Shown: piece by piece, positions 4,199 through 51,360 of the stretch | Layout: each line of letters opens with the position of its first letter | How positions within the stretch are numbered: position 1 is the stretch's first letter | IMG/VR virus record: IMGVR_UViG_3300023210_000033 | Location: 1-62,424 of that record | Origin: a virus | Taxonomy: Duplodnaviria; Caudoviricetes | Reading direction: 5' to 3' (one strand) | DNA: 62,424 nt | Notes under the pieces: model-generated | The model's input: only the letters and a program-made list of their open reading frames with translations | Told to the model about the DNA's origin: nothing | Database searches by the model: none | Position numbers and translations under genes: made by a program

Positions 4199-6413
4199 AC
4201 TGTATAGAACATTAGAGGACTATATCCCTAAGAACGTACTTAGCAATAAAAACAAAGCTAAGTCGTGGGAGTATGGATATGACTCTAAGTATAATGTAGT
4301 TGTTATATCCAAGACAGGACAAGTGGGTTCTGTAATAAATATAAGTGGCTTAGCAATAGCGCTACCTAAAGAACCTAAAGAGTGTCTTCAAAGACACTCT
4401 AAAAAAGAACAACAATTTTGGGAAAGAACAGACTTACCTAAAGACTTAGATAGAATACAATCTATATTCCAATGGAATGAAATGTCATCTGATTTTAAAA
4501 ACAGATGGGTTGATTACATTGAGCGTGAGTTTGATTATAGGGAAGACGGTATGTTCTTTATGAACAACGGAAAGCCAACTTATATTACAGGCTCTCATTA
4601 TATGTATCTTCAATGGACAAGCATTGACGTAGGATACCCCGACTACAGGGAAGCAAACAGAATATTTTTTATTTATTGGGAGGCTTGTAAAGCTGATAAG
4701 AGAAGTTTCGGAATGACCTATCTAAAAATTAGGCGTTCAGGATTTTCATTTATGTCTTCAGCAGAATGTGTAAACACAGGTACTCTCGCTAAAGATGCAA
4801 GGGTAGGTATACTATCTAAGACAGGTAGTGATGCAAAGAAAATGTTTACAGATAAAGTAGTTCCTATAAATAACAGGTTACCTTTTTTCTTTAAACCTAT
4901 AATGGACGGTATGGACAGACCTAAAACTGAATTAGCTTTTAGAGTTCCTGCTTCTAAGATAACCAAGAAGAATATGTACGAGGTGGAGCAAGATGTTCTT
5001 GAAGGTCTTGATACAACTATTGATTGGAAAAACACAGATGACAACAGTTATGATGGTGAGAAACTATTATTGTTAGTGCACGATGAAAGTGGTAAATGGA
5101 TTAAGCCTAATAATATTTTAAATAATTGGCGTGTTACCAAAACCTGTTTGAGATTAGGTAGTAAGATTATAGGTAAATGTATGATGGGTTCTACTTCAAA
5201 TGCTCTTAGTAAGGGTGGTAGTAATTTCAAGAAACTATTTGAAGACTCAAGTGTAACATCTCGTAATGCAAACGGACAAACAAAAAGTGGGATGTATAAT
5301 CTTTTTATTCCTATGGAATGGAATATGGAAGGATTCATTGATAGATACGGGATGCCTGTATTCAGGAAAACAGATGAGCCTGTGTTAGGCGTTGATAATG
5401 AAATGATAGAGAATGGTGCTATAGACTATTGGGAAGCTGAGGTTGATTCATTAAAGAATGATGCTGATGCTTTGAATGAGTTCTATAGGCAATTCCCAAG
5501 AACAGAGTCTCACGCATTTAGAGATGAGAGCAAACAGTCCTTATTTAATCTAACCAAGATATATCAACAAGTTGATTTCAATGATACGTTGATATCAGAA
5601 CATCATATTACAAGAGGTTCTTTTAGTTGGTTAAATGGAATAAAAGATACCAAGGTAATTTTTAGCCCTAATAAAAGCGGAAGGTTCTTGGTTAGTTGGA
5701 CTCCTGAAAAGAATTTAACTAATAGAATTATAACTAAGAATGGAACTAAATATCCGGGTAACGAACACATAGGCTCGTTCGGATGTGATAGCTACGATAT
5801 AAGTGGTGTAGTTGGTGGCGGTGGTTCTAATGGAGCATTACACGGACTAACAAAGTTTAATATGGATAACGCTCCAAGTAACGAGTTTTTCTTAGAATAT
5901 ATTGCTCGACCACAAACGGCAGAGTTATTTTTCGAAGATGTATTAATGGCTTGTGTGTTCTATGGTATGCCTTTATTATGTGAGAATAATAAACCAAGGC
6001 TGCTATACCATTTTAAACACAGAGGATATAGAGGGTTTAGTATGAATAGACCTGATAAGACTTACAATAAATTATCAAAGACAGAACGTGAGTTGGGAGG
6101 GATACCCAATACAAGCGAATCAGTAAAACAAGCACACGCTTCTGCAATAGAATCTTACATAGAACAATATGTAGGAATGAACATAGATGAAGATTTAGAA
6201 GACATAGGAACGATGCCTTTTTCGAGGACCTTGGAGGATTGGGCAAAGTTCGATATAAGTAACAGAACAAAGTTTGATGCAAGTATATCGTCAGGTTTGG
6301 CTATAATGGCGTGTCAGAAACACCTATACCAACCTGAAAAAAAACAATCAAAAATAAACATTAACTTTGCAAGGTATAATAACAAGGGAACAATAAGCGA
6401 AATTATTCAATGA
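4176..6413 (+). CDS. terL: Terminase large subunit
   Basis: Walker A variant LKIRRSGFS, Walker B LLVHDESGKW, coupling motif MGST, nuclease GCDSYD; located before the portal. TTG start is uncertain. Confidence 0.9.
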   Translation: MQKEGQNKLYRTLEDYIPKNVLSNKNKAKSWEYGYDSKYNVVVISKTGQVGSVINISGLAIALPKEPKECLQRHSKKEQQFWERTDLPKDLDRIQSIFQWNEMSSDFKNRWVDYIEREFDYREDGMFFMNNGKPTYITGSHYMYLQWTSIDVGYPDYREANRIFFIYWEACKADKRSFGMTYLKIRRSGFSFMSSAECVNTGTLAKDARVGILSKTGSDAKKMFTDKVVPINNRLPFFFKPIMDGMDRPKTELAFRVPASKITKKNMYEVEQDVLEGLDTTIDWKNTDDNSYDGEKLLLLVHDESGKWIKPNNILNNWRVTKTCLRLGSKIIGKCMMGSTSNALSKGGSNFKKLFEDSSVTSRNANGQTKSGMYNLFIPMEWNMEGFIDRYGMPVFRKTDEPVLGVDNEMIENGAIDYWEAEVDSLKNDADALNEFYRQFPRTESHAFRDESKQSLFNLTKIYQQVDFNDTLISEHHITRGSFSWLNGIKDTKVIFSPNKSGRFLVSWTPEKNLTNRIITKNGTKYPGNEHIGSFGCDSYDISGVVGGGGSNGALHGLTKFNMDNAPSNEFFLEYIARPQTAELFFEDVLMACVFYGMPLLCENNKPRLLYHFKHRGYRGFSMNRPDKTYNKLSKTERELGGIPNTSESVKQAHASAIESYIEQYVGMNIDEDLEDIGTMPFSRTLEDWAKFDISNRTKFDASISSGLAIMACQKHLYQPEKKQSKININFARYNNKGTISEIIQ
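4382..4397. repeat. 16-bp palindromic motif copy 1 (GTGTCTTCAAAGACAC), inside terL
   Basis: Exact motif; the palindrome extends to 4379..4400; read as CLQRH. Confidence 0.95.
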
Positions 6414-11487: not shown

Positions 11488-11520
11488 GGGAGGGTGTCTT
11501 CAAAGACACTCTCCCTTTAT
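11488..11520 (+). terminator. Hairpin terminator after MCP whose stem contains palindromic motif copy 2 (11494..11509)
   Basis: GGGAGG-GTGTCTTCAAAGACAC-TCTCCC followed by TTTATT. Confidence 0.75.
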
Positions 11521-20908: not shown

Positions 20909-21319
20909 ATGGAGTTTAATATTAGACCTCTCAATAGTAGTGATTACGATGATATTCTCTGCAAATGGTGGAAAGATTGGAAGTGGGATGCACCTCTAAG
21001 AGATTTTTTACCTGATAACGGGGAGGGTGGTATAATGATTTTAGATGGTGACGAACCTGTATGTGCAGGTTTTTTGTATACCACTAATTCAAATGTAGCT
21101 TGGGTCGATTGGATAGTGTCTTCAAGGACATATAGAAAAAAGCCTCATAGAAAAGAAGCTATTGTACTTTTAATTGATACTCTTACAAACATATGTAAGA
21201 ATAGTGGGGCAAAATACTCGTACGCTTTAATAAAGCATAAAGCATTAGCCGACACGTACTTATCCTTAGGATACACCAACGGAGATTCTTACACAACGGA
21301 GATGATAAAAAAACTATAA
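20909..21319 (+). CDS. GNAT-family acetyltransferase-like protein
   Basis: IRPL..DY start, VCAGFLY, AWVDWIVS..YRKK and YLSLGY; precedes the ejection-protein genes as in many podoviruses. Confidence 0.65.
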   Translation: MEFNIRPLNSSDYDDILCKWWKDWKWDAPLRDFLPDNGEGGIMILDGDEPVCAGFLYTTNSNVAWVDWIVSSRTYRKKPHRKEAIVLLIDTLTNICKNSGAKYSYALIKHKALADTYLSLGYTNGDSYTTEMIKKL

Positions 21320-24154: not shown

Positions 24155-27100
24155 ATGAACGAACAAGCTATACAAGACGCATATAAATTATTCGTTGAAA
24201 ATGGATATAGTAAATCAATAGATGAATTCAAAGTATTGATGAAGGGAAACAACAATGCACGTGAAGATATGTATAAGTTGTTTGTCAATCAAGGATACAG
24301 AAAATCTAAAGAAGACTTTGGTGTACTTATGGGAGTGTCTTCAAAGACACCACCTGTAAAAAAAAAAGACGATTCGGAATTACTTGGGGAAGATGGTTCT
24401 TCGGGTTCTGCAGAGATTAAGACCCTTCCAACTGACCGTGAAGAGTTAAAAGAACTACTCTCAAGAAAGCCTCCTGTTGTAGGACAAGATACAGGAGAAG
24501 ACTTTTACAGAAATCCTATGAAGAGCATAGGAATGTATCCTTCACAAGAGCAGGTAGATGGAGCAATTCAGCAACAGTTTGCTGACTTTCAAAAGACTGC
24601 TGAAGTTGCTGAACAGGATGCTCCTTTTTTAAGTAAGAGACAAGAAGAAGAAGAGGATGCTGCAAGAGTAGCAAATGAAACCCTTATAGTAGACAGAGAA
24701 GCAGCGCTAAAAACAGAAGACTTTCAAGCAGCATTAGCAGCAACAGATGCCAAGTCTATGGAGATGGACGAAGAAGATGCTATATCATACTTTACTAACC
24801 TGTATGGAAAATATGGGTTTGTATTTAGAGAGGTAGGAATGGGAGATGCTATGGAAGTTATAGCTACTGATGGTTCTACTAAAACCATAGACCTTCAAAC
24901 CATAATGTCTAACGACAAAGAAGCATCAGCATTAAGAAGTTTCGTAAAGGGTAATGCACACGCTGCGGCTGATGTTCCTGAAAACCAAGATGAAATAACA
25001 AATGCAGTAAGAGCAAACAACTTAAGAAAAACTCCACGCTTAAACGATGACGGAACTGAGTCTACAGTTAAATTTCAATCAGCAAATATAGATGGAAGAG
25101 AAGTAGTATACCCTACATTATTCCCCGATGCTGATGGTGATTTCTATGGTAGTGACCCAAGTTGGTGGAAAGAACTTGATGGTGTAGAAGCCTATGAAGA
25201 AGCAGTAAAAAGAGGAGAGGTTTTCTACTTTGATGACCCTGAAAAAGCTGCTGAGTTTTCTGAAGGAAGTTGGAAGAGTATAAACAGAGTAGACGGAGAA
25301 GCTAATAAGTTTTACAAAGACAGAGGTTTAGATTACGGTTCATACAAAAAGATGCACGACAGATATGAAGAAGTTATGTCTACCATTAGTGCTATCGAGG
25401 ATTCTCCTTATTACAAAAAAGATTTATCAGCAGAAGAACAAGAAAAGTTAGGGTATCTCTATGTCAATGGGAGAAAGAGAAGTGACCGTGAAGCAATATT
25501 AAAAGAGTTAAATGATGAGGCAGACGAATTAAGACCTCAAGTAAATCAAGATGAATTTCAAAGAGTCCGTGAAGACTTTGATTTAGTTCTTGATAAACAA
25601 TATAGAAAGCAATCTAAAATAGCTGCATACAAAGGACAAGAAGCTGATGCGATAATGGATGACGTTGACGTAAAATCTCTTCAGCAATTTGGTGTACCTG
25701 CTAAGGATATAACTAAGATTGTACCTAAGACTGATTTAGAAAAAGAATTAATCAGAGGAATAAACGAAGAGTACCAATCCGCTGCAAACAATCAAAAATT
25801 AGCTGCTGATGCTTATCAAGTTTCAAGAACTTGGCTTGATGCTAAGGTAGATAAACAAGCACGTGATGCTTACGTAGATGATTGGTCTTCCGTATCTAAT
25901 GCTTGGGAAGGTGGGTTAGCAAACGGGAAGGTTGGTAATATGATATTAGCCCTGTCGTTAGGCATTGAAGATGTTGATAGCGATTCAAGTACAGAAGAGG
26001 TAGCTTCAAAGATTATTGAGTATATGAAACAAGCACAGACGGGTAAAACCGGACGTACTCAAAGAAGATGGCACAATGCTCGAGGTTTTCAAGAAGCCTT
26101 TGATGTGTTTAAAGATAATCCTGCTGAATTAGCCTTAACCTTAGCGGCTCAGAGTATGAGTCAAATGTTACCATATGGATATAAGTTAATAATAGGTGGT
26201 ACTGCAGCAGGTGCAGGTACAGGAGCAGTATACGGTAGTGTTGTTCCCGGTGCAGGTACTGCAGCAGGTGCAGTAGGTGGAGCAGGTTATGGTTTCAGAA
26301 CAGGGTTCGCTTCTACAATGGTAGCTTTAGAGTATACCAATGCAGTAATGGATGCTGCACGTAAGAGGTACAATGTAATGAATCCTGAAGAGTTGGCGAT
26401 GGCTCTCCAAGATAAGGAAGTGTGGGACGAAGGTAGAGAGATAGGTTTAAAAAGAGGTTTAACTATTGGTGCGGTAGATTTCTTTGCAATGGGATTAGCA
26501 GGTCGTGTTTTTAAAACAGGATTATTAGCGAGTAGAACTGCAAGGGTAGCAGCGGTAGGTGCTGAACGAGTGGTGTTTGACCCTATTGCTGAAGGTGTTG
26601 GAGAAGCACTTGCTCAGGTAGTAGCAGGTCAAGAGTTAGACGGTAAAGAGATAGCGGCTGAAATGATTGGTGGTTTAGGTAACAACACACCTATGGCAGC
26701 CTATAATGTTTTTATGGATAACCAAGCAACGACTAAGTTAGATATAGCTAACACTATGATGTCGCTTGACGGATTCTCTACATTGAATTATAGTGATAAG
26801 CGAATTATGAATTTCGCTAACAATATGGAAACGTTAGGTCAGTTAACTCCTGAACAAAACCAACTGATACAAGAGAATATTGGTTTAAGAAGAGAAGCAA
26901 GAAGCCTAATGGGTATTGGTGGAAACAAAATCACAGATGCTCTAATGTCTCAGTCTTCTCCTGCAATAGAAGCAAGACTATCAAAGTTATTAGCAGCAAG
27001 AAATGAGTTAAGTTCTACTCCAAATAGGAAGCAAGTATTTTCTCAAAAGATAAAAGATATTAATACAGAGATATCAGATATTGTAACCAACAAAAAACTA

Positions 27101-30100: not shown

Positions 30101-32878
30101 CTTGAGAGTGTGCAAGAGCAAAGACAGATAATGAAGAATGAATTAGTTAAGAAGATGGCTAAGATGATTGCTTCTAAATCTAAGACCAAGCGTACTGCTT
30201 CAGGTAAAAGAAGAAGTGCAGGGTTAGATGCTATAGGTCAAGGATACTTTAAAGCTGCTGATAATATATTGAAGATGGTTTTAAAGAATGATTTAGAAGG
30301 TCTTCAACAAATGCAGTTAGCAATAAACGAAGAGCAGTACAATGAAATTGCCGCTAAGATAGAAGCAGGTGAGAAAGTAACAATGAGAGAGAGGGCTATC
30401 TATGACACACAGTTAGCCTTAGACACTTTCTCTGACGTTATGAATATGGAACTTGAGCAAGTGAATGAATTGTTTGCTGAGGTAAAGAACACAAGAAGAG
30501 AATCTCTTGCAAGATTAAACAACAGAAGAGAGGCAAGAAGAGCAGAGACCAATGCAATAAAGGAAGAGTTTGAATCTCAAATTCTAAATGACTTTGATGT
30601 TTTATTTGATGACAATGGTAACCCTTTAAGTGACATAGTTATAGAAACAAGGAGGGAAGCTATAATGTTGGCGTACAAAGAGAGTGGTTTCAAGGCAGGT
30701 CTTTCTGAATTCTTAAATCAGTTTATGGATAACTCTAAACTTAATGCTAATTCTATTAGTAGGTTTATGAGAAACACCGTAGGACATTTAGGAACTATGA
30801 CAAGAACTCTTGATAAATATTCTAACGGAATGTTTACTAAGATATTCTATGACCAACTAAACGAATTTGATGAGAACAATCTTCAAGGTGTACGAGAAAC
30901 TGAATCAAGAATGGATTCAATGGCTAACGACACTACAGGAAAGACTTGGAGCAAATGGAAATATTCTTTAGGAACTAACGTAGTTAAGTATGATTTCACA
31001 GATACTGAACACAACAATCAGTTTTCAAAAGGAATTGGAACAGACCAAGCTATGTACCTATACGCTCTATCGTTGAATGATGTTCAAAGAAAAAAATTAG
31101 AAGCGCAGAATGTAGACATAGAAAAGATTAAAAAACAAATAGGACCTGACAATCAAGCATTGGTTGAGCAGACTGTTGAATTTTTATCTAACGATTACTT
31201 TGAGCAAACAAACGCAGTTTATGTTCAAGCTAATGATGTGAACCTTGGATACGTAGAGAATTACTTTCCTGTTCAGACCATAAACAAAAGCGACATAACA
31301 TCAGAGATGATTGGCTCGGGTGAGTTTGGTAAAGTGTTTAGTGCAGAGTATGCTCCTGCATTAAAAGAACGTACCAATAAGAATCAAGATGTAAAAATTG
31401 GTTTATCATTTAGTGAGGTGATGGAAGAACACGTTAAGTCTATGGAAAAGTATAAGGCTTATGCGTTAGGTGTAAAACAAATGAATGAGATTCTTAAGAG
31501 TCAATCTATACAGAACGTATTAAACTCTACAGGTCTTAAGAATTTATTTAAAACTTCATTGAACTATGCAATCAATCCTGATTCAGGTCCTCGTGTTGAG
31601 AATGATATTGTTTCTAAATCACAAGGTGCGTTCACAGGTTTTGCATTGGCACTTAAGATTGTTCAGATACCTAAGCAGATGGCTTCTTTTATACAGGCAT
31701 TCGAACAATACTCTGCTACCAAAGAGAACAACAACATACCGGGATTAGACCTTGCTATGTTTATGTATGACTATGCAAAGGTGTTGGTAATGTTGAGAAC
31801 AAATCTCAAGGAAGCAAGAGAGGTGTCTGCTACATTTGATAATCGTATTAAGAAAGGATTAGAAGGAGATATCTTTGGTCTTGAATCAGGTAACAGAACG
31901 TTTAAGAAAATCAAGGCTCAACAAGGAAGATTAGGTAGAGCACAGAGAGCCTTAAATAAAACCTTAGGATTTACTACAGTAGCAGGTGATATCTTAGGGG
32001 TGCTTGGATATAAGGCTTTGTATAACAGAAACATTGCAAATGGTATGAGTAAAGCTGAAGCGTTGAGATTGTTCAATGACTTCAATGCAACTCAGCAAAC
32101 AAGAAGAGCAACGGAGAAGAGTCAGATGCAACAAAGCAGTAATGTTTTTGCAAGGTTCTTTACTATGTTCGGTAGTTCTCTATACTTAATGATGAACAAC
32201 GTAAGTCAATCAGGTATGTCTATAGGTGTAGATATTATGAATAAGAAAGTACCTAAGAAAGCAGACCTACGAAAGTTCGTATTAAACTATAGTGTAGCTA
32301 ACGTTTTGTTTACCGCTGCAGCATACTCACCGGCATTGCTCTTTGCTAAAACTGATTCAGAAAAAGACAGGGCATACAGAGCATTAAGAGATGCAGCCTT
32401 AGGGTTAAATCTTTTATATCAGATTCCGTTTATTGGAGCAGGGTTAGAGAGCCTTAGAGATACATTAGATGGTAAGAGAAGTATGGCAAGTGATGGTGTT
32501 AATCCATTCACAAGTGTGATAGGTAAGGTTCGTAAAGGGGTGAAGGAAGACGGTTTAGTTGTAGGAATGTTAAGACCATTGGCTGAGATTTTTGCAAGGT
32601 TTCAATTCGACACACCAATTGCACTTGTTAAATTATTGACAGGCAATGCGGATGCTATAGAAGGAGACTACTATGATTTGTTTGGTGTAAGTAAATCTTA
32701 TAGACCGGGATACGGAACTCAAACAAAGAAAAGTAATACAAAAAAAGGTGGAGGTGTTAAGAAGAGTAGTATCAAAAAGTATCAACCTGATTTGTATGAC
32801 AAGCTATACGGACCTAATAGTGCTACCGCTAAACAGAAAGCAAGAATTAAAAAGCTAAAAGAAAAGTATAAGCAATAG
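24155..32878 (+). CDS. Giant (2907 aa) ejected / polyvalent protein with zincin-like metallopeptidase motif
   Basis: HEFGH (29021..29035) with downstream EEALATAIG; Gly/Ala-rich hydrophobic segment at ~26190..26330; last gene of the structural operon. Confidence 0.65.
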   Translation: MNEQAIQDAYKLFVENGYSKSIDEFKVLMKGNNNAREDMYKLFVNQGYRKSKEDFGVLMGVSSKTPPVKKKDDSELLGEDGSSGSAEIKTLPTDREELKELLSRKPPVVGQDTGEDFYRNPMKSIGMYPSQEQVDGAIQQQFADFQKTAEVAEQDAPFLSKRQEEEEDAARVANETLIVDREAALKTEDFQAALAATDAKSMEMDEEDAISYFTNLYGKYGFVFREVGMGDAMEVIATDGSTKTIDLQTIMSNDKEASALRSFVKGNAHAAADVPENQDEITNAVRANNLRKTPRLNDDGTESTVKFQSANIDGREVVYPTLFPDADGDFYGSDPSWWKELDGVEAYEEAVKRGEVFYFDDPEKAAEFSEGSWKSINRVDGEANKFYKDRGLDYGSYKKMHDRYEEVMSTISAIEDSPYYKKDLSAEEQEKLGYLYVNGRKRSDREAILKELNDEADELRPQVNQDEFQRVREDFDLVLDKQYRKQSKIAAYKGQEADAIMDDVDVKSLQQFGVPAKDITKIVPKTDLEKELIRGINEEYQSAANNQKLAADAYQVSRTWLDAKVDKQARDAYVDDWSSVSNAWEGGLANGKVGNMILALSLGIEDVDSDSSTEEVASKIIEYMKQAQTGKTGRTQRRWHNARGFQEAFDVFKDNPAELALTLAAQSMSQMLPYGYKLIIGGTAAGAGTGAVYGSVVPGAGTAAGAVGGAGYGFRTGFASTMVALEYTNAVMDAARKRYNVMNPEELAMALQDKEVWDEGREIGLKRGLTIGAVDFFAMGLAGRVFKTGLLASRTARVAAVGAERVVFDPIAEGVGEALAQVVAGQELDGKEIAAEMIGGLGNNTPMAAYNVFMDNQATTKLDIANTMMSLDGFSTLNYSDKRIMNFANNMETLGQLTPEQNQLIQENIGLRREARSLMGIGGNKITDALMSQSSPAIEARLSKLLAARNELSSTPNRKQVFSQKIKDINTEISDIVTNKKLRPDEQQVLLAGEGVIGVQEQQSGSDIRTGVKKYAINGKTFTREAFLAELEKLNNKKLLKSAIQVDNDEEAFEEVDKRITAAENETSNKPVTTPKKIVMNDEGVLVEEQVDIVNNENTQDNAIQESSTESVDAQEQTQDSETLGERVQTEGQIAEEVTSQEEVIAEEVTPELEQEVNDLKNMLEPDSKKQFQLDDTTITPERKKKLEKRATELMEEIQPELSEKSFVVEETSVTPTPVVVTENKELESKVPKMKVQDLEGKRINLVMADQLKVDEKRMGGPFFPLQEGVYGKQIAWASISVDAAREIIKGSIGADYAIVYNMSPSAVDSNVVLLDSLIEKVEESENSEAIFEAMMEDLSNKKFGGKTDIVNAIAQRSQSLEEFKGLFMELDVDTKAAIFKAVLPLANVEAGTKVGKLFAAEGVTQESLRAENVEQFASDLPMGSMTMVLKITDKNGNPITKENIDDAIVTQEQQKAEGIKTHKNYPVYIRGEAVAMMENTVPFWSVNKNALSTINAKVDGIVKKKVAAKIDKKTGEVKAEATTRNTTASEARSAEMRRASMKAGTNFEVTEATKTNYERFITKLTKSFPNTEVVTSQEAFDELTSELNAQKLMTKNQKVYGAVYNGKLYLNPALENYDTPVHEFGHLWLNTAKALTPETYEKGLSLVKGTQYESDVRNSKSYKKVIKQMIADGATESEIEAYILEEALATAIGNKGASFATAAQKKNFKAWLEQLFDFVKKLTGISKLSAEQIQDLSLDEFTEAVVVDLLSENKAFKEAESAVLSDALQLSLAPDTSPDAIVRMAREQGFTDDAIRVVLKDRGLSATRISEAIKVQRDLMTTMPKEFGNVEGGATVGLELFNEIKDGVQSFSTEGPRGGRGTTRTKTFGEIRAKAQELLVESRVYKRQDSQIQMEMRVALDRQLGIRNNPQVTREIGAIRNALKQRKIGKDNITEAQRRLRNFIRKALPDSKNYRRKSINKLLSIINSTTPTNFQGQAVKVLESVQEQRQIMKNELVKKMAKMIASKSKTKRTASGKRRSAGLDAIGQGYFKAADNILKMVLKNDLEGLQQMQLAINEEQYNEIAAKIEAGEKVTMRERAIYDTQLALDTFSDVMNMELEQVNELFAEVKNTRRESLARLNNRREARRAETNAIKEEFESQILNDFDVLFDDNGNPLSDIVIETRREAIMLAYKESGFKAGLSEFLNQFMDNSKLNANSISRFMRNTVGHLGTMTRTLDKYSNGMFTKIFYDQLNEFDENNLQGVRETESRMDSMANDTTGKTWSKWKYSLGTNVVKYDFTDTEHNNQFSKGIGTDQAMYLYALSLNDVQRKKLEAQNVDIEKIKKQIGPDNQALVEQTVEFLSNDYFEQTNAVYVQANDVNLGYVENYFPVQTINKSDITSEMIGSGEFGKVFSAEYAPALKERTNKNQDVKIGLSFSEVMEEHVKSMEKYKAYALGVKQMNEILKSQSIQNVLNSTGLKNLFKTSLNYAINPDSGPRVENDIVSKSQGAFTGFALALKIVQIPKQMASFIQAFEQYSATKENNNIPGLDLAMFMYDYAKVLVMLRTNLKEAREVSATFDNRIKKGLEGDIFGLESGNRTFKKIKAQQGRLGRAQRALNKTLGFTTVAGDILGVLGYKALYNRNIANGMSKAEALRLFNDFNATQQTRRATEKSQMQQSSNVFARFFTMFGSSLYLMMNNVSQSGMSIGVDIMNKKVPKKADLRKFVLNYSVANVLFTAAAYSPALLFAKTDSEKDRAYRALRDAALGLNLLYQIPFIGAGLESLRDTLDGKRSMASDGVNPFTSVIGKVRKGVKEDGLVVGMLRPLAEIFARFQFDTPIALVKLLTGNADAIEGDYYDLFGVSKSYRPGYGTQTKKSNTKKGGGVKKSSIKKYQPDLYDKLYGPNSATAKQKARIKKLKEKYKQ
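24335..24350. repeat. 16-bp palindromic motif copy 3, inside the giant-protein gene
   Basis: GTGTCTTCAAAGACAC, read as VSSKT. Confidence 0.95.
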
Positions 32879-32893
32879 TGTCTTCAAAGACAC
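32878..32893. repeat. 16-bp palindromic motif copy 4, overlapping the stop codon of the giant gene
   Basis: GTGTCTTCAAAGACAC starting at the G of TAG. Confidence 0.95.
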
Positions 32894-35598: not shown

Positions 35599-37080
35599 TC
35601 ATAAAGATAATAAATCTCTTTTAAAGTGGCTAAGTGTGTAGTCCTTCTTCTTACTGACCGCCTCGTAAATATCTTTTTCTATTCCTCCCTTGGTGAAAAT
35701 CCAATAGACATCTGACTCTAATCTATCCTTAGTTGTCATCCTATCTCTTGACTGCCAATAACTTGTAGCACTAAAGTCTATGTTATAATACACAAGTGCC
35801 TCAGCTTTTCGTAAGGATATACCCTCACGACCTGATACAATCTGTAAGGCTATAGACTGACGAGTGTCTTCAAAGACACTTAGTTCAGTACATAAAGAAT
35901 CTCCATAAACTTTTTTCAATGCATTAAGTTCTTCTTTAAACTTATAAAAGATTCCAATCTGCACATCGCCAAAGTTGTCGTGTATAAACTGAGCCTTACT
36001 TAGGTCAAGGATAGTTGACTTACCTGATTCAAACTTCACAGTACCGGAGTACATTTGGTGCAGCTTCATCATTAACTTCACAGGAGTGTCAGCTAATATA
36101 ACTTCTTCCTTGCCTTCAATGACTAAATCTTTTTTTAATTGAGCCGTAAGTTTGTATGTGATTGGCTCAGCATCTACCTCGAGTATGTGTTCACGTGTAT
36201 CAACTTTAAACCCTGCCTCTTTTTGTGAGTAGCTTAGCGTAAAAGGTTTCATCATATCCATTATAGATATCTTACCATCGTGATAATCATTTATGTATAG
36301 ACCATTTATTTTTCTTTGCTTAACATTCACATACTCTTTAGAGAACTTATAAAAGTTAGCGTAATCTGCAAAGGGATTTCCTTTTATTCCATACACTTGA
36401 TGATACATCTGACTATAAGATTCAGGTGTTGGTGTACCTGATAACAAAACAACATAAGGTTTTTGTTTCTTTATTATATCCTTCACCTGCTTGGCACGTT
36501 TACTTGGCTTAGGAAACGCTCCCATTCCGTGTGCTTCATCGCATATTACTATATCAAACTCTCCTTCAATCTTGTGTAATGATTCATAGTTTATCACGGT
36601 CAAGTCATAGTTGTGTCCAATCTTTATGTAGTCAGACTCTATGCTGCTGATTGCTTTCTTCTTTGTAATGAATAAAACATTCTTACAATTGAGCAGGTGA
36701 GCAATGCTTAAACTTGTTAAAGTCTTTCCTGTCCTCACCTCCATAGCAAGGTAGACAAAACCTTTTTGCATTAATAATATACTACTCTCTGTTGCTATTT
36801 TCTTTTGGTAATCTCTGAGTTTTATTTGTGGTTTTCTTTTTTCCATTAGGTTCTTATAAAATTCTACGCTATCATTTATAGACTTAGCTATACGTGGTTC
36901 TGTTGTATACTTCAGAACCTTTTTCATAAAGGCTTTCTTACCTCTTCCAACCTTAACTTCTTCAGTTAAGTTTACTATACCTGCTAACAACTTACATTGT
37001 CTAAGCATCATCTCTGCACTATATCCCGGGATAGGTTCTATTACGTTAGGGTCTCTGCTAATTCCTTTAATGGTATACAT
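35599..37080 (-). CDS. SF2 (SNF2-like) helicase
   Basis: LRDYQ, RTGKT, DEAH, LSGTP, GREGISL and QSRDR motifs; the true start may be downstream (~36846). Confidence 0.85.
   Translation of the reverse strand: MYTIKGISRDPNVIEPIPGYSAEMMLRQCKLLAGIVNLTEEVKVGRGKKAFMKKVLKYTTEPRIAKSINDSVEFYKNLMEKRKPQIKLRDYQKKIATESSILLMQKGFVYLAMEVRTGKTLTSLSIAHLLNCKNVLFITKKKAISSIESDYIKIGHNYDLTVINYESLHKIEGEFDIVICDEAHGMGAFPKPSKRAKQVKDIIKKQKPYVVLLSGTPTPESYSQMYHQVYGIKGNPFADYANFYKFSKEYVNVKQRKINGLYINDYHDGKISIMDMMKPFTLSYSQKEAGFKVDTREHILEVDAEPITYKLTAQLKKDLVIEGKEEVILADTPVKLMMKLHQMYSGTVKFESGKSTILDLSKAQFIHDNFGDVQIGIFYKFKEELNALKKVYGDSLCTELSVFEDTRQSIALQIVSGREGISLRKAEALVYYNIDFSATSYWQSRDRMTTKDRLESDVYWIFTKGGIEKDIYEAVSKKKDYTLSHFKRDLLSL
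35864..35879. repeat. 16-bp palindromic motif copy 5, inside the helicase gene
   Basis: GTGTCTTCAAAGACAC, read on the - strand as VFEDT. Confidence 0.95.
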
Positions 37081-39849: not shown

Positions 39850-39884
39850 AAAAAAAAGGAGTGTCTTCAAGGACACCCCTCTCT
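39850..39884 (-). terminator. Terminator after the SSB gene built on palindromic motif copy 6 (39861..39876)
   Basis: - strand GGGGTGTCCTTGAAGACACTCC followed by a T-run. Confidence 0.75.
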
Positions 39885-39901
39885 TTGCTTCTTAATTGGT
39901 A

Positions 39902-40177
39902 TTAAAACGGTAGTCCTGTATCCTCAGCACTTGCTACCTGAGGCGCTGCCTCGGTATTAGCCGCCTTGTTAGGCTGCCACGTGTCTAATTCACAATACTC
40001 CTTACCACTTTTACCTTTCTTGATATCGATGTTGACCCATCCACCTTTAGCATTAGCCTTAAGGAATGCAACCGCATCTTCTACCTTGATTGATAATCTT
40101 CCGAGTACCCACTCAGGAGCATCGTCTCTTTTAGGTTTAAACATAAACCCATCTGCAAAAATTTTTTCTTCTGCCAT
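39902..40177 (-). CDS. Single-stranded DNA-binding protein (putative)
   Basis: Small OB-like core with an acidic tail ending GLPF; next to recombination genes. Confidence 0.65.
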   Translation of the reverse strand: MAEEKIFADGFMFKPKRDDAPEWVLGRLSIKVEDAVAFLKANAKGGWVNIDIKKGKSGKEYCELDTWQPNKAANTEAAPQVASAEDTGLPF

Positions 40178-41044: not shown

Positions 41045-41694
41045 TACTTCTTAGCCGTTACAAGGTTAGTAATAGATGTCTTAACAGATGCTGATACAAC
41101 ATACTTCTTAGCTATCAAATCAGTTAGCTTTTTAACACCTTGTGACTTGTTATCTTTAACGTAGTTCATTACGTTATCCCAATTAGCATCACCTTTCTTT
41201 AGTTCAAGGCGGTCATTCGCAGCCGGGTTAGTTTTCGTTGGTGTCTTTGAAGACACTTTACTTGCTAACTCTTCTTGCTTAGCGACAACCTCATCTTGTG
41301 GTAAGTCCTCACCTGCATAGATATAAAGTCCAAGTCCGTGACGTGCGATTGCTTTAGTAAGACTACGTTGGATTGCCTTGTTAACTTCTACTGACGTTAG
41401 CTTATCCATTGCCAAAGACTTGTTACTATAGTTCATAATAGGAAGATACTCTATGTGTTCTTCACCTTCAATTGTAACTCCTGTCTTTACCCAAGCTGAC
41501 CTGTTGTCTGTGTGGTAAATCATTCCGTGTTCGTTTTCGTACACGGTGTACGTACTGTTAGGATAATTCTCTTTTACTTTTGACCAAGCCCAAGCCCAAG
41601 ACAAGTAAGTAAGTCCATTCTTTTTTTCTGTAAACTTGTTTACGTTGATTCCATTTAAGGTTTCAAATACTGATTTCTTTTTTGCGTTTGCCAT
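41044..41694 (-). CDS. Sak (Rad52-like) single-strand annealing protein
   Basis: EKKNGLTYLSWAWAW..LPIMNY.N..IQRSLTKAIARHGLGLYIYAGEDLP. Confidence 0.9.
   Translation of the reverse strand: MANAKKKSVFETLNGINVNKFTEKKNGLTYLSWAWAWSKVKENYPNSTYTVYENEHGMIYHTDNRSAWVKTGVTIEGEEHIEYLPIMNYSNKSLAMDKLTSVEVNKAIQRSLTKAIARHGLGLYIYAGEDLPQDEVVAKQEELASKVSSKTPTKTNPAANDRLELKKGDANWDNVMNYVKDNKSQGVKKLTDLIAKKYVVSASVKTSITNLVTAKK
41241..41256. repeat. 16-bp palindromic motif copy 7, in the Sak linker
   Basis: GTGTCTTTGAAGACAC, read as VSSKT. Confidence 0.95.
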
Positions 41695-42104: not shown

Positions 42105-42391
42105 TGTTGTATTTCTTTTACTACGTTAACATAGTCCTTATCTTTTTTAATCTTCTTCGTCACCATATCTATTCCGTGGATAATTGAAGAGTGATTAATA
42201 AGGTATCCTTTCTCTGCCATATATTCCTGTATGTACACGAGCCTCATCGGTCTAATGTAACAGGCATAATATAACAGGTGACGTGCATCCACTATGTCCC
42301 TTCGCTTTGACTTGGTAAACAGAGTGTCTTCATCTATAGAGAATAGTTCACAAACTTTCTCTACATAATTATTAAAAATCTTTGCTTTCAT
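42089..42391 (-). CDS. Second DnaA domain-IV-like HTH protein
   Basis: VCELFSI..LFTKSKRRDIVDARHLLYY..INHSSIIHG. Confidence 0.7.
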   Translation of the reverse strand: MKAKIFNNYVEKVCELFSIDEDTLFTKSKRRDIVDARHLLYYACYIRPMRLVYIQEYMAEKGYLINHSSIIHGIDMVTKKIKKDKDYVNVVKEIQQCIIA

Positions 42392-42581
42392 TTGATTCTG
42401 ATTGTGTTAAGTCCCCACTAAATATCTGTGAGAACGATTCGAATAATTCATTTAATACTTCCTTACTATCGAGTGTCTTTGAAGACACTACTTCTCCACC
42501 TCTCTCCCGAGACGTAGACTTTACTTTGCAGTAGTGATTTGATTGTTCCATACGATTAAGTTTGAGTTGTTGTCCATTCAT
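42372..42581 (-). CDS. Hypothetical protein (contains motif copy 8)
   Basis: 69 aa filling an operon gap. Confidence 0.45.
   Translation of the reverse strand: MNGQQLKLNRMEQSNHYCKVKSTSRERGGEVVSSKTLDSKEVLNELFESFSQIFSGDLTQSESNESKDF
42473..42488. repeat. 16-bp palindromic motif copy 8
   Basis: GTGTCTTTGAAGACAC. Confidence 0.95.
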
Positions 42582-43460: not shown

Positions 43461-43472
43461 ATGATTTTATTT

Positions 43473-43920: not shown

Positions 43921-43955
43921 AATAAAAGCAAGAGTGTCCTTGAAGACACCCTTGC
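43921..43955 (-). terminator. Terminator after GATase-GGCT built on palindromic motif copy 9 (43934..43949)
   Basis: GCAAG-A-GTGTCCTTGAAGACAC-C-CTTGC, with TTTTATT downstream on the - strand. Confidence 0.7.
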
Positions 43956-45041: not shown

Positions 45042-45061
45042 AGTGATTTGATTTGCGAGGG

Positions 45062-45077
45062 GTGTCTTTGAAGACAC
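45062..45077. promoter_or_regulatory. 16-bp palindromic motif copy 10, in operator position between promoter and GATase start
   Basis: GTGTCTTTGAAGACAC lies between promoter 45093..45127 and ATG 45041. Confidence 0.85.
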
Positions 45078-45092
45078 CGACCTCTGATTTAC

Positions 45093-45127
45093 AATTGATT
45101 TATACAAAGGTAAGACTAAATTTAGAC
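45093..45127 (-). promoter_or_regulatory. Early promoter repeat copy 2 (GTCTAAAT-N7-TACCTTTG-TATAAATCAATT)
   Basis: Contains canonical TAnnTTTG; duplicated at 43473..43507. Confidence 0.65.
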
Positions 45128-46356: not shown

Positions 46357-46372
46357 GTGTCCTTAAAGACAC
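46357..46372. repeat. 16-bp palindromic motif copy 11 (leader of the membrane-protein gene)
   Basis: GTGTCCTTAAAGACAC within a ~35-bp context TGGTTTTGTGGA..TCCGGTT shared with copy 13. Confidence 0.9.
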
Positions 46373-46702: not shown

Positions 46703-46777
46703 TTTAATTTGATTTTATTGTTCCTGTTTCATCCTTTTGGAATCATCAGCCGGAATACTCATTCCGATACAGGAGGA

Positions 46778-46793
46778 GTGTCCTCGAGGACAC
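46778..46793. repeat. 16-bp palindromic motif copy 12 (perfect palindrome GTGTCCTCGAGGACAC)
   Basis: Intergenic, downstream of the amidoligase gene; extended by GGA/TCC. Confidence 0.92.
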
Positions 46794-47789: not shown

Positions 47790-47805
47790 GTGTCTTCAAG
47801 GACAC
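47790..47805. repeat. 16-bp palindromic motif copy 13 (leader of the amidoligase gene)
   Basis: GTGTCTTCAAGGACAC in the same ~35-bp context as copy 11. Confidence 0.92.
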
Positions 47806-47826: not shown

Positions 47827-48474
47827 TTAGCTTAATTGTCCGTTAATCATTGCAAGTACTTCCTGCACTTGTGCTTGAGTGTTTCTTGTAAATACTTCAC
47901 CATTTGCATCGATTCTCCAAGCGACATTGTCACCATTTGGATTCTTAAACGATAGTGTAATAATTGTCTCAACTCGCTCTGTAGTATTCTCTACTGCTTC
48001 AGTAATTGCTTCCTGCTCTGCCTCGGCAATCTGTTCCTCTGTAGCATCTTCACTATGCTCTAACGAATCAAGGTCAATGCCTCTGCTGAATTCTAAAAGA
48101 CCGGCAATACTTCTCTGTGCATCATCGCCATTGGCATCACACATTTCGTTGAATGCATCTACAATTCTTTGGTCAAGGTTACCTGCCTTGATGACCTTGT
48201 AGAAGAATGATTTTTGCCATCCGAATACCTTTAGACCGAAATCTTTTTTGCTCCATTCGATTCCCTCTTCAGCAAATAACTCTTTCCCCTCTGTAGATTC
48301 AAAGAATGTCACCGCCTCGTTTACGAGTTTAGACATCTTCATTGTGTGACCGAATTTGCTCTTCTGAGCATTCTTAATTGAACGCTGAATGCGTTTGATG
48401 TCGGTTAAGTTTAATTGCGCTTTCACCTGTGGTAGGTTTAAGAAGGCTGTTTCGATTGATAATAAATTGCTCAT
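47827..48474 (-). CDS. First early gene; possible HTH DNA-binding protein with acidic C-terminal region
   Basis: WSKKDFGLKVFGWQKSFFYKVIKAG looks HTH-like; Glu-rich segment; directly after promoter 48556..48563. Confidence 0.55.
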   Translation of the reverse strand: MSNLLSIETAFLNLPQVKAQLNLTDIKRIQRSIKNAQKSKFGHTMKMSKLVNEAVTFFESTEGKELFAEEGIEWSKKDFGLKVFGWQKSFFYKVIKAGNLDQRIVDAFNEMCDANGDDAQRSIAGLLEFSRGIDLDSLEHSEDATEEQIAEAEQEAITEAVENTTERVETIITLSFKNPNGDNVAWRIDANGEVFTRNTQAQVQEVLAMINGQLS

Positions 48475-48555: not shown

Positions 48556-48563
48556 CAAATATA
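48556..48563 (-). promoter_or_regulatory. Bacteroidota -7 element (TATATTTG) for the leftward early operon
   Basis: CAAATATA on the + strand, upstream of ATG 48474. Confidence 0.6.
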
Positions 48564-48689
48564 GTCTAATTCTCGTTAATACAAAAGGATTAGGTCAAAA
48601 GTTTTTCTGTTCCCCAAGAAAAGTTTAGGTGAATTTATTTTCGTGCAGAGGCTAAGAGATGTCTCTGTGCATCTCGTACTTTTTGCAAA

Positions 48690-48713: not shown

Positions 48714-48827
48714 ACCGGAGCAGTTTTGGTTCGGGTTATGACCGGAGCAGGACGGGAGCAGGACGGGAGCGGAGCAGGATACGAGCGGAGCAATCGCATA
48801 ACGGGAGCGGAGCAGGAGCGGAGCAGG
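48714..48827 (+). repeat. GC-rich, purine-skewed short tandem repeats (GGAGC-A/G-G units)
   Basis: About ten GGAGC/GAGC units (ACCGGAGCAG x2, GACGGGAGC x2, GAGCGGAGCAGG x3) in an AT-rich genome. Confidence 0.85.
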
Positions 48828-49396: not shown

Positions 49397-49397
49397 G

Positions 49398-49471
49398 TAC
49401 CCCCTTCAGGACTCGAACCTGAAACCTACACATTAGAAGTGTGTTGCTCTATCCAATTGAGCTAAGAGGGC
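49398..49471 (-). tRNA. tRNA-Arg (anticodon TCT)
   Basis: GCCCTCTTAGCTCAATTGGATAGAGC..ACACA-CTTCTAA-TGTGT..GGTTCGAGTCC..AGGGGGT-A: full cloverleaf with no encoded CCA. Confidence 0.93.
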
Positions 49472-49755: not shown

Positions 49756-51360
49756 ATGAATGAAATAGGGTACTCACCAAAGAATTTAAAGTTTGACGAT
49801 GAAGGTCGTAACAAACTTATTACCGGAATTAGCACGATTGCTAAAGCAGTTAAGTCAACACTCGGTCCATCCGGACAGACTGTGCTAATAGAATCACCTC
49901 ATCACACTCACGGAATCACAGTTACTAAGGACGGAGTTACAGTCGCTAAGGCAGTAGACCTCTTAGACCCGACCGAGAACCTTGCGGTTCGGATGATGAA
50001 GGAATCGGCAGACAGAACTGCAGCATCTGCAGGAGACGGAACTACAACTGCTATAGTTTTAACTGAGGCTTTAGTAAAAGCAGGAATTGAAATGATAGGA
50101 GAAGATACCAATAAGACAGAAGTCTTGAGGGATATCGTAACTAAAACAAATGCAATCTGTGACAATCTAAAGAAGATGTCAAGGGCAGTTACTAAAAGTA
50201 AGTTAAAGGATGTGGCTACTATATCAGCTAACAACGACACAACCATTGGTAACATTATCTCGAAAGTATACAAGGACGTAGGCAAAAATGGCATCGTGAC
50301 TGTTGACCGTTCCCAAACTTCCGAAACATACTTCGAGACAACCAATGGGTTAAAAATAGATAGAGGTTATTCTTCTAACCTTTTTATCAATGACCAAAAG
50401 AAAGATGAGTGTGTCCTTGAAGACACTCTTGTAATGGTATCAGATGCAGAGATAAGTAATATACTACAGATTGAAAATATACTTAAACCTGTATTAGGAG
50501 ATAATAAGAAACTATTAATTATAGCACCGTGTTCGACTAATGTGATAAACACATTAGCTGCGAACGTAATGAAGAGGGGAATCAAAGTTTGTGCCATAAC
50601 CCCTCCTTCATTTGGATACAAGCAACACGAACTTATGCACGACATTGCAGTATCAGTTGGTGCAACATACTTTTCAGAAAAGACAGGAGATGACCTCAGC
50701 CTTATGACTATAGATGACTTAGGTAGTGCAGCTAAAGTTATAGTAGGAAAGAACTCAACGGTATTACTAAAAGAATCAAATGTAATTAGTGAAACCACAG
50801 AAGAGAGAGTTAATCAGTTATGGGATGCTCATAACAATGCAGTAAAGAAAGGTGATAAAGAATTTATCTTGTCAAGGATAGCTTCTCTTACAGGAGGGAT
50901 AGGAGTTATTTATGTAGGAGGTCAAACAGACTTAGAACAAAAAGAACTATACGATAGAGTAGACGATGCAGTATGCGCAGTACGCTCAGCACTTGAAGAA
51001 GGAATTCTTCCCGGTGGTGGATTGGCTCTTTACAAGGAAGCTACCTTCGTTGAAGATGCTAATGGTGGGGTTGCAGGAAAAATTTTAGCGAGAGCACTTC
51101 GTGCTCCTTTATTACAGATTTATGAAAACGCAGGTTTGAAGTTATCAGTAGATGAAGAACAAAAACTTATGTATGATGAAGGTACTGAAGGTATGAACGT
51201 TAAAACAGGAGAGTGGGGAGATATGTATAAGATGGGTGTTATTGACCCATTGAAAGTTACAAGGTCCGCATTACAGAATGCAGTATCAGTAGCAGTAACA
51301 ATTTTATCGACTAACGCTATTATAACAATGGCAAGAACATACGAGGAAAGCGGTGATTAA
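49756..51360 (+). CDS. groEL: Phage chaperonin GroEL
   Basis: STLGP, VTKDGVTVAK, AGDGTTTA, DRGY, VDDAVCAVRSALEEGILPGGG, GVIDPLKVTRSALQNA. Confidence 0.96.
   Translation: MNEIGYSPKNLKFDDEGRNKLITGISTIAKAVKSTLGPSGQTVLIESPHHTHGITVTKDGVTVAKAVDLLDPTENLAVRMMKESADRTAASAGDGTTTAIVLTEALVKAGIEMIGEDTNKTEVLRDIVTKTNAICDNLKKMSRAVTKSKLKDVATISANNDTTIGNIISKVYKDVGKNGIVTVDRSQTSETYFETTNGLKIDRGYSSNLFINDQKKDECVLEDTLVMVSDAEISNILQIENILKPVLGDNKKLLIIAPCSTNVINTLAANVMKRGIKVCAITPPSFGYKQHELMHDIAVSVGATYFSEKTGDDLSLMTIDDLGSAAKVIVGKNSTVLLKESNVISETTEERVNQLWDAHNNAVKKGDKEFILSRIASLTGGIGVIYVGGQTDLEQKELYDRVDDAVCAVRSALEEGILPGGGLALYKEATFVEDANGGVAGKILARALRAPLLQIYENAGLKLSVDEEQKLMYDEGTEGMNVKTGEWGDMYKMGVIDPLKVTRSALQNAVSVAVTILSTNAIITMARTYEESGD
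50411..50426. repeat. 16-bp palindromic motif copy 15, inside groEL
   Basis: GTGTCCTTGAAGACAC, read as CVLEDT. Confidence 0.92.

Follow-up and report, generated by a model that had tools for sequence, protein, structure and literature searches.

Several systems of short, repeated sites have been described. The stoperators of phage L5 and its Cluster A relatives are asymmetric 13-bp sites bound by a monomer of the lysogeny repressor gp71; they occur in tens of copies, mostly in short intergenic gaps and in a few cases inside genes, their orientation is biased with transcription, and they have been proposed to stop RNA polymerase. The RK2 KorB operators and the ParB-parS and SopB-sopC systems consist of near-identical palindromes of 13-16 bp, about a dozen per replicon, some of them inside genes or distant from any promoter, and are read by a dimeric helix-turn-helix (HTH) protein that the same element encodes. 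The hairpin promoters of N4-type phages are located upstream of early genes only, and these phages carry a giant virion protein with an RNA polymerase domain. At the RNA level, animal replication-dependent histone mRNAs have a conserved, protein-bound 16-nt 3' stem-loop just upstream of the cleavage site. Here, we analysed a 16-bp palindrome, GTGTCYTYRARGACAC, dispersed along the IMG/VR virus record IMGVR_UViG_3300023210_000033 (Duplodnaviria; Caudoviricetes). The window, that is, the whole stretch of DNA analysed, comprises this entire record of 62,424 bases, which is rated 100% complete.

The palindrome is kept by a group of marine flavobacterial-type phages, both between genes and inside essential genes. 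The reading we favour, with a probability of about 0.45, is that a phage-made dimer of a 215-aa protein binds the DNA site at cistron boundaries, and that the RNA copy of the site doubles as a hairpin at mRNA ends. No description of the palindrome was found in the literature searched at the title and abstract level. Dispersed operator-like palindromes and terminator hairpins are known as such; what is unusual here is the strict conservation of the in-gene copies, a motif dialect that drifts together with the candidate reader and the coupling to hammerhead-like ribozymes.

The many dispersed, short and mostly intergenic sites (15 in the window, 201 in 16 genomes) are a feature shared with the stoperators. 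The element differs from them in being a two-fold palindrome of 16 bp, in its use as an RNA hairpin and in the ribozyme-like elements downstream, and no integrase or CI-type repressor family was recognised among the 23 window proteins, a part of the gene set, that were compared with Pfam. Near-identical dispersed palindromes, some of them inside genes, are likewise shared with the KorB- and ParB-type sites, but here the sites stand at cistron boundaries and not at promoters or a centromere, and no ParB N-terminal (CTP-binding) domain was found in the product of 47827-48474 (Pfam, E up to 5). For promoters of the N4 type, the position of some copies, as terminators behind genes or right ahead of ribozyme-like elements, is a poor fit, and no Pfam match was obtained for the 2907-aa giant protein of the window. 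The histone stem-loop belongs to another domain of life and another cleavage machinery, and serves only as a functional analogy for an RNA-level reading. Mobile palindromes of the repetitive extragenic palindrome (REP) type with their associated tyrosine transposases (RAYT), or of the miniature inverted-repeat transposable element (MITE) type, were rejected, since the copies occupy the same codons across genomes at 58-71% helicase identity and no copy-rich bacterial chromosome was present among the matches listed.

Copies of the palindrome in the window

Fifteen exact copies were found in the window, all at the positions listed by a first-pass annotation of this sequence, against none in 100 dinucleotide-preserving shuffles. 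When up to two mismatches were allowed, the sole addition was the sequence at 21116-21131 (GTGTCTTCAAGGACAT; shuffle mean 0.20), and the motif pattern read backwards gave no match in the window. The layout is 5-6-5, GTGTC-N6-GACAC. The arms are invariant and the variation is confined to positions 6, 8, 9 and 11, in agreement with the annotation, which had described fixed GTGTC and GACAC arms with only pyrimidine/purine (Y/R) positions varying. The centre is semi-constrained (Y T Y R A R), and each half-centre varies independently. The two commonest centres, TTCAAA (CA form) and TTTGAA (TG form), are mutual reverse complements, so every copy carries an orientation. The copies, the candidate binder gene and the ribozyme are the following (strand in brackets).

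4382..4397 (+), in-gene copy in terL, open reading frame (ORF) 4176-6413, codons 69-74, peptide CLQRH; CA form on the sense strand
11494..11509 (+), top of the terminator that follows the major capsid gene (10040-11473); lower stem about 11488-11515, then a T-rich run
21116..21131 (+), one-mismatch copy (last base T) inside ORF 20909-21319; a sense-strand G.U pair results
24335..24350 (+), in-gene copy near the start of the 2907-aa ORF (24155-32878)
32878..32893 (no strand assigned), copy overlapping the end (stop codon) of the giant ORF, where this ORF and the minus-strand block converge
35864..35879 (-), in-gene copy in the helicase gene (35599-37080), codons 400-405, peptide (S)VFEDT; TG form on the sense strand
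39861..39876 (-), terminator-like hairpin between the SSB-like gene (39902-40177) and the primase gene; extended stem, eight T, -22.1 kcal/mol
41241..41256 (-), in-gene copy, Sak (41044-41694); encodes VSSKT in the variable linker
42473..42488 (-), copy in a putative 69-aa ORF (42372-42581), otherwise intergenic
43934..43949 (-), hairpin 15 nt past the GATase/GGACT stop codon; extended stem, sense-strand G.U pairs, -18.9 kcal/mol
45062..45077 (-), copy 20 nt upstream of the GATase/GGACT ATG
46357..46372 (-), intercistronic copy 18 nt past a stop codon and about 19 nt ahead of the next ATG
46721..46775 (-), hammerhead-like ribozyme, type III; GUA cleavage triplet, CUGAUGA and GAAA core
46778..46793 (-), intercistronic copy immediately 5' of the hammerhead; centre CTCGAG, so that the palindrome is perfect
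47790..47805 (-), copy separating the candidate binder gene (stop codon at 47827) from the amidoligase-like gene (ATG at 47769)
47827..48474 (-), candidate binder gene, first of the leftward early operon, 215 aa
48690..48705 (no strand assigned), copy between divergent genes, some 105 nt upstream of a minus-strand promoter consensus of Bacteroidetes type (48556-48585)
50411..50426 (+), in-gene copy in the GroEL gene (49756-51360), peptide CVLEDT; TG form on the sense strand

Among the copies that the annotation had placed inside ORFs, those in terL, the 2907-aa ORF, the helicase, Sak and GroEL lie in coding sequence that is conserved in relatives, with the peptides CLQRH, VSSKT, VFEDT and CVLEDT as described, and 42473 falls in the 69-aa ORF, which is putative. 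Several of these places recur in related genomes. Copy 11494 lies 8 nt inside a possible ORF start (11486), yet it is the apex of the capsid-gene terminator in 13 genomes. In the giant gene, most relatives place the copy 2.0-3.8 kb in, unlike the near-start copy 24335. The Sak linker copy is also present in G004, G008 and G014, most relatives have a copy upstream of the GATase/GGACT homolog, and six have one 2-4 nt past the stop codon of the homolog of the candidate binder. The idea of a type IIS site (GAAGAC) was dropped, as 54 such hexamers in the window point to no avoidance.

Distribution among related genomes

The exact 16-mer was found in at least 120 viral-contig stretches, many of them on contigs of 58-66 kb. 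The degenerate motif was present in 22 of the 22 records chosen from these exact matches, a choice biased by the match itself; most of the complete ones carry 8-21 copies, and the reversed control gave 0. Fifteen full related genomes (about 60 kb), with 1-21 copies each, were compared with the window. The resulting 16 genomes hold 201 copies, 89 in ORFs and 112 outside or on an ORF edge, and the density is 19.8 times higher outside ORFs by crude ORF calls (ATG-started, at least 40 aa, 94.0% coding). This roughly 20-fold excess between genes lends no support to the earlier view that a protein coats the genome at these sites. Gaps between copies are irregular and reach about 16 kb. In the early region, gene content is highly variable and a copy stands at most gene boundaries.

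No match was obtained by megablast of 25 kb of the window against GenBank phages. By capsid protein, the nearest GenBank entries are the uncultured podovirus MW202828.1 (73% identity) and Maribacter phage Panino (53%), followed by Flavobacterium Elemovirus (47%) and Cellulophaga phi38:1 (40%). The cultured relatives Elemovirus, phi38:1, Panino and phi13:2 were scanned and contain zero GTGTC-N6-GACAC sites; no isolate is known to carry the motif. The close relative G011 (61,775 bases) carries a single palindrome copy, in the helicase gene, and its early module is missing, so that it can serve as a negative control provided by nature; neither G011 nor Elemovirus has another dispersed palindrome with arms of at least 6 bp. 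Dispersed palindromes are nevertheless found in relatives, a point on which the annotation had made its proposal depend, and three related records carry an analogous variant. Terminal repeats of 69-127 bp in the relatives probably match the size of an assembler overlap.

A scan of bacterial and archaeal genomes (the annotation had suggested Flavobacteriaceae chromosomes) was judged on 80 of at least 120 matches. Only single hits in unrelated taxa and two multi-hit, phage-like contigs of metagenome-assembled genomes were present among the matches listed; an element that is spread over host chromosomes is therefore unlikely.

Selection on the copies inside genes

The in-gene copies are held by selection on DNA or RNA and not on the peptide. 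Helicase proteins of the genomes are only 58-71% identical, yet the sequence AGT GTC TTT GAA GAC ACN stands at the same codons in 14 of the 16, G011 included. A single codon is used at 5 of 5 motif codons in these 14 genomes, whereas this holds for 2% of the other columns with an invariant residue (n = 158), where the mean is 2.85 codons. The copy is displaced by about 30 nt upstream in G004 and G012, and the helicase of MW202828 has no copy. In terL, the sequence G TGT CTT CAA AGA CAC is found in 14 genomes, in a linker whose neighbouring residues vary; again 5 of 5 motif codons are single-codon, against 3.6% of 193 control columns, and, whether the residue just before the motif is K, E, Q or T, the last base of its codon is invariably G. 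The site has one mismatch in G006, and no copy is present in terL of G011, MW202828 or Elemovirus. Outside the motif, conserved residues of terL and the helicase are spelled with about 2.7-2.9 codons. The GroEL peptide C-V-F/L-E-D-T is conserved regardless of the motif, which occurs exactly at those codons in 8 of 16 genomes. The frozen synonymous sites of helicase and terL in 14 genomes bear out the proposal that selection acts on the DNA rather than the peptide, and of the two outcomes the annotation had envisaged for in-gene copies, synonymous retention and relocation, both were seen (terL and helicase; G004 and G012).

The arms were further compared over the 16 genomes and 80 further loci. 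This gave 522 distinct sites with exact arms; one arm mismatch was seen in 16 others and two in 6, and no arm change was compensated. Invariant arms without compensation mean a sequence-specific constraint and not a structural one. Such strict freezing of synonymous sites can reveal regulatory DNA hidden in essential phage genes.

RNA hairpins and terminators

As RNA, the isolated element forms a stem-loop with a 6-bp stem and a 4-nt loop (-5.6 kcal/mol). At intergenic copies the stem is extended by 2.35 bp on the sense strand and 1.08 bp on the antisense strand, compared with 0.62 at random and 0.58 for in-gene copies, and the sense-strand extension reaches at least 4 bp in 37 of 100 intergenic copies. 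With some 40% of intergenic copies on longer sense-strand RNA hairpins, the DNA-only picture of the first-pass annotation is incomplete. At the convergent junction, the stem of copy 32878 is longer on the minus strand (-12.9 minus versus -6.6 plus).

The clearest case is the terminator after the capsid gene, which in 13 genomes consists of a G+C-rich lower stem and a T run with the palindrome on top. Six lower pairs change on both sides, 95.5% of the cells are paired and 0 of 500 shuffles reach the score, whereas the six upper pairs are invariant. The terminator at 11494 has a fold energy of -23.0 kcal/mol, and 39861 and 43934 fold alike. The capsid-gene copy thus has the stem, U run and covarying pairs of an intrinsic terminator, which does not hold for most other copies. 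G+C-rich extended stems, which covary across genomes, and a T run are shared between intrinsic terminators and the copies 11494, 39861 and 43934; the differences lie in the identical apical 16 nt, in the lack of a T run at most copies and in the lack of an extended stem at in-gene copies.

In metatranscriptomes, whose contigs cannot show RNA ends and whose libraries may contain DNA, one contig spans 39888-43316 and crosses the copies 41241 and 42473. Contigs from two runs end at 39888, 12 nt from the copy 39861-39876, from which nothing firm was drawn.

Hammerhead-like ribozymes

The sequence CTGATGAG...GAAAC is common in the early-region flanks of the copies. The corresponding element of the window, 46721-46775, reaches 32.1 bits with RF00008 (E 2.7e-5 in 301 nt; E 1.4e-6 in the clade-wide Rfam search), short of the gathering score of 48.5. 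It emerged only in the 301-nt search, the scan of the whole window (E up to 1) having returned a tRNA and two chance rows only. A U.U pair is present at 10.1/11.1, and the window's own ribozyme may be weak, judging from its sequence. Over 18 records (E up to 0.01), 23 matches were obtained in 13 records, namely 12 of the 16 clade genomes and Elemovirus, with scores of 19.6-47.6 bits, all below 48.5 and the best at G012 12492-12546. The matches have the full core, three stems, a GUC or GUA triplet and a covarying stem I, and cleavage is predicted only.

These elements are tightly linked to the palindrome: 21 of the 22 clade matches begin at most 26 nt past a copy, and for 18 of these the distance is at most 7 nt; the order is fixed as stop codon, palindrome, ribozyme, A-rich leader and ATG. 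An account without hammerheads, such as the earlier one, is incomplete in this respect. Cleavage would leave the conserved hairpin at the end of the upstream mRNA. The majority of the 16-mers are without a ribozyme. Elemovirus has one hammerhead and no palindrome, and MW202828 has no hammerhead match. At G015 24697-24721 and G001 58416-58440, an extra hairpin, ACACAGCCC-TTCG-GGGNTGTGT, lies between palindrome and hammerhead.

Hammerheads are described between the genes of phage and prophage operons in the parts considered here of an earlier report, which proposes that long transcripts are cut into gene-length mRNAs (PMC3088659). The occurrence of several ribozymes between the genes of a phage operon is common to both cases, but the same parts of that report mention no palindrome ahead of the ribozymes, whereas here 21 of 22 are preceded by the same 16-mer.

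Orientation of the copies

At intergenic copies of the clade genomes, the CA form lies on the sense strand in 68 cases and on the opposite strand in 14, with 12 symmetric copies; at the 80 loci, a set that partly overlaps with the former, the numbers are 181, 41 and 44. In hammerhead-like contexts, 74 of 78 oriented copies have the CA form on the sense strand. For a stoperator-like orientation with transcription, the picture is mixed: the intergenic copies are biased (68/82 and 181/222), yet over all sites (181 oriented sites in 15 genomes) the gene strand leaves 54 exceptions. A model of two arcs, from terL to upstream of the primase gene and from Sak to GroEL, identical across genomes, leaves 17; with shuffled labels the mean is 32.8 exceptions and the minimum 23 in 200 trials. 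Because the genomes are syntenic, only a small number of independent site classes underlie the two-arc pattern. In helicase and GroEL the copies are reversed because the protein needs Glu, which in that frame is encoded only by the TG form.

Candidate binding protein and variant motif

The 215-aa product of 47827-48474 consists of a basic helical N-domain (pI 8.7), an acidic linker and a small beta C-domain. All 14 multi-copy relatives and MW202828 encode it; G011 (one copy) and Elemovirus (none) do not. With its profile 80 loci were retrieved, and 80 of 80 contain 1-11 GTGTC-N6-GACAC sites. Its family has at least 998 members in the protein collection, and no significant family was found for it by Atlas, PHROGs or PDB sequence search. 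The structure model has a pLDDT of 82.3 over the whole protein and 90.5 over residues 1-131; helices 76-84 and 88-98 surround a 3-residue turn, and G85, S89 and K93 are invariant. The homodimer prediction scored 0.68, against 0.00 for the best of 3 controls. Of proteins with solved structures, 20 of 30 one-chain pairs and 1 of 23 single chains reached this mark. At least 96% of the contacts recur between runs, with a partner pLDDT of at least 82. The prediction thus supports pairing as a symmetric homodimer.

Among the binders named in the first-pass annotation, this first early protein is the best supported, by its co-occurrence and predicted dimer. The winged HTH protein (51657-52097) and the two DnaA-domain-IV proteins (42089-42391 and 34515-35054) do not track the motif, because all are present in G011, which lacks the dispersed copies, and they were rejected. 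Two further candidates were set aside: the 91-aa protein 39902-40177, which looks SSB-like with an acidic tail ending in LPF, and the PDDEXK nuclease 32966-33391, which is missing from 3 of the 14 multi-copy relatives.

A variant dialect, GTGTCG..CGACAC, is used by three related records. MW202828 has 14 copies of GTGTCGTTAACGACAC and none of the window's motif; they are confined to the region of early and replication genes, where most lie 16-23 nt ahead of a start codon. All 4 copies of G023 are GTGTCGTTAACGACAC, and the 4 copies of G024 have the form GTGTCG-YYAA-CGACAC. Some stand at places used by the main type, i.e. the Sak linker (MW202828), the inside of the Sak homolog (G023) and upstream of the GATase/GGACT gene (MW202828 at 47653, G024 at 43469); for others, within the primase gene (MW202828, G023) or the linker of the candidate binder gene (MW202828, G024), we saw no main-type counterpart. 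The capsid of G024 is 86% identical to that of the window but its first early protein only 32%; the motif type therefore travels with the early module and not with the structural module. Helix 86-96 is near-constant over the 80 loci, and both variant-motif genomes have L-S-K where the main type has W/Y/F-Q-K. A protein whose presence or recognition helix follows the motif is what the earlier annotation had proposed to look for.

Proposed mechanism

In the reading we favour, the 215-aa dimer would bind the duplex at the cistron boundaries of long polycistronic units and at a few fixed places in genes. The bound dimer would be a regulated stop or insulator for RNA polymerase, so that the early operon and the entry into late genes would be under global control of the roadblock type. 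The site is palindromic, so every transcript through it also folds into a hairpin. Combined with a G+C-rich lower stem and a U run, this hairpin would serve as an intrinsic terminator; with a hammerhead 1-7 nt downstream, it would become the 3'-terminal hairpin of the cleaved upstream mRNA; and at other copies it would stand 15-25 nt ahead of the next start codon. Protein binding, the identity of this protein, DNA rather than RNA as its target and the transcriptional stop are what we infer. The invariant arms, the 5-6-5 layout, the independent half-centres and the predicted symmetric dimer would fit a duplex-DNA site best, and the flanks, the ribozyme linkage and the orientation bias indicate that the transcribed hairpin is also used; together they favour the dual reading.

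A number of points weigh against this reading. A symmetric dimer cannot explain the oriented asymmetric centre (CA form on the sense strand in 68/82, 181/222 and 74/78), and the longer sense-strand stems together with hammerheads that lie always 3' and never 5' of a copy indicate work at the RNA level. A roadblock inside terL, the helicase gene and the giant gene would need relief, and copy 48690, near the early promoter, is not in operator position. The co-variation of protein and motif is carried by only two variant lineages, G005 of the main clade has a different helix start yet the usual motif, and the amidoligase-like, GATase/GGACT and SSB-like genes co-occur with the motif equally well. 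Comparisons of the 215-aa protein gave no Pfam family even at E up to 5, no significant Foldseek match (best E 0.14, then 2.7) and nothing significant with VIA (Z at most 6.0 and at most 4.9). Weak HTH rows were obtained for P1 ParB (Foldseek E 0.14), Spo0J (Z 5.2), SopB (Z 4.3) and KorB (Z 4.8 and 4.7; Z 4.3 and 3.9, with root-mean-square deviations of 2.9 and 2.5 over 68 and 66 residues). All of these rows fall short of what the search tool regards as meaningful, and the ParB, KorB and SopB rows (Z 3.9-5.2) are within chance for helical proteins.

A fuller version, in which the element is a double-read punctuation mark, with a dimer-bound stop in DNA and a transcribed hairpin and hammerhead that cut and stabilise gene-length mRNAs, and in which the dialect drifted with its reader, is an attractive but doubtful extension. 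If it were true, about 25 early genes could be timed and dosed from a single promoter. A large group of abundant, uncultured marine phages would then carry a simple, portable pair of cis-element and reader that organises polycistronic expression, and phage hammerheads would gain a concrete role, a question that, by the parts of the report considered here, has been open since their discovery in phages (PMC3088659). The natural specificity variants make the system of site and protein directly testable by swaps. The 16-bp site, the small dimeric binder and the hairpin-ribozyme unit are also possible insulator parts for Bacteroidota genetics.

Alternative explanations

A serious rival, although we consider it rather unlikely, is that the element works in RNA only: a sequence-specific RNA-binding protein or nuclease of phage or host would read the 16-nt stem-loop in transcripts, where it would mark or protect mRNA 3' ends after cleavage by hammerheads or an RNase and top terminators. 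The sense-strand bias of the loop, the sense-strand lower stems with G.U pairs and covariation, and the constant order in which 21 of 22 clade hammerhead-like matches follow a copy within 26 nt all fit this explanation. So do the spacing to the next ATG, which peaks at 15-24 nt, a sixth pair that the sister type preserves by having G-C in place of T-A at positions 6/11, and the mostly sense-CA state of the frame-free in-gene copies (Sak linker, giant gene). However, arms that never covary in 522 sites are unusual for a structure-only element, and a sequence-reading partner is therefore still required. The in-gene copies have no extra stem and would be melted by ribosomes, yet are the most strictly kept; at positions 6/11 of intergenic sites, C.A mismatches occur on the sense strand roughly as often as U.G pairs (12 versus 16); and the best candidate is predicted to be a two-fold symmetric dimer, which would fit a duplex dyad better than a hairpin. 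A weaker objection is the metatranscriptome contig that is unbroken across 41241 and 42473, as contigs cannot show RNA ends. The orientation could instead reflect a strand-polar DNA element, such as a polar fork barrier or a hairpin of single-stranded DNA that primes or loads a primase-helicase, with the copies forming two opposed arcs. We regard this as improbable. The two-arc model has 17 exceptions in 181 where the gene strand has 54, the arcs are the same in all genomes, placement inside genes is irrelevant to a signal at the DNA level, and the phage encodes a primase/D5-type helicase, an SF2 helicase, an SSB-like protein, Sak and a RecE-like exonuclease, and no polymerase was seen. Yet with syntenic genomes the independent site classes are few, two break points per genome can be chosen freely in the model, and the main deviations from the gene strand (helicase and GroEL) are explained by the Glu in V-F/L-E-D-T. 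Irregular spacing with gaps up to about 16 kb, the roughly 20-fold intergenic density, a hammerhead linkage that has no place in such a model and sister-type copies only in the early and replication region also speak against it.

Two more explanations do without a reader made by the phage. Promoter-stem-loop cassettes are known from T4-type phages, and the copies could similarly be passive hairpins, terminator or insulator stems spread by duplication or homogenised by Sak/exonuclease recombination, which might also give short homology for the shuffling of early genes. The variable early gene content with a copy at most boundaries, the Sak and RecE-like exonuclease of the phage and the copies that are plain terminators are in line with this idea, but it is hard to reconcile with fixed-codon copies that stay frozen at 58-71% helicase identity while their flanks drift, which points to direct selection on the 16 nt, with invariant arms that do not covary, or with sister genomes that switched all copies together to the variant; we give it little credence. 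Least probable of all, in our view, is a site for a host regulator or a defence/restriction factor, exploited or titrated by the phage. The variant record MW202828 is from freshwater and the runs holding the window are seawater metagenomes, so differing hosts could explain the variants. Against this stand the genome scan with its single hits and two phage-like contigs (80 of at least 120 matches), the use of the variant by G024 despite its 86% identical capsid and the existence of the motif-less relatives G011 (outside its helicase copy), Elemovirus, phi38:1, Panino and phi13:2.

Early module and neighbouring genes

Four early genes present in 14 of 14 multi-copy relatives and in MW202828 are missing from G011 and Elemovirus, namely those for the 215-aa first early protein, the amidoligase-like protein, the GATase/GGACT protein and the SSB-like protein. 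Facing the early operon at 48556-48585 (-) is a sequence that we take to be a Bacteroidetes-type promoter consensus (TTTG, 19 nt, TATATTTG). No second match to this assumed pattern occurs on the minus strand down to 32 kb, as would be expected if a single long early operon had to be punctuated internally. Direct repeats resembling GGAGCAGGAC lie beside this promoter consensus at 48730-48790.

For the amidoligase-like protein (46810-47769, -), there is an Atlas lead only, Amidoligase_2 being found in 12% of the nearest cluster. The nearby gene at 43965-45107 (-) encodes a fused GATase_4 and GGACT protein (Pfam), and the two products may form a pair for small-molecule or peptide modification. 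The core of the 91-aa protein at 39902-40177 (-) is conserved, and its acidic tail ends in D/E-L-P-F in 12 of 14 homologs; it is presumably a small SSB whose tip binds a partner. A PDDEXK_14 "phage putative endonuclease" (32966-33391, -) is the last gene of the minus-strand block and adjoins copy 32878; it is present in 11 of the 14 multi-copy relatives and not in G011. A tRNA-Arg(TCT) gene is located at 49397-49471 (-), between the divergent region and GroEL. A second repeated k-mer of the window, GGTGACACAGGTG, is unrelated to the palindrome: it is a coding repeat at 58.2-58.9 kb, whose units make up collagen-like Gly-X-Y repeats at 58256-58862 (+) within ORF 57164-59845, the product of which is probably a fibre protein.

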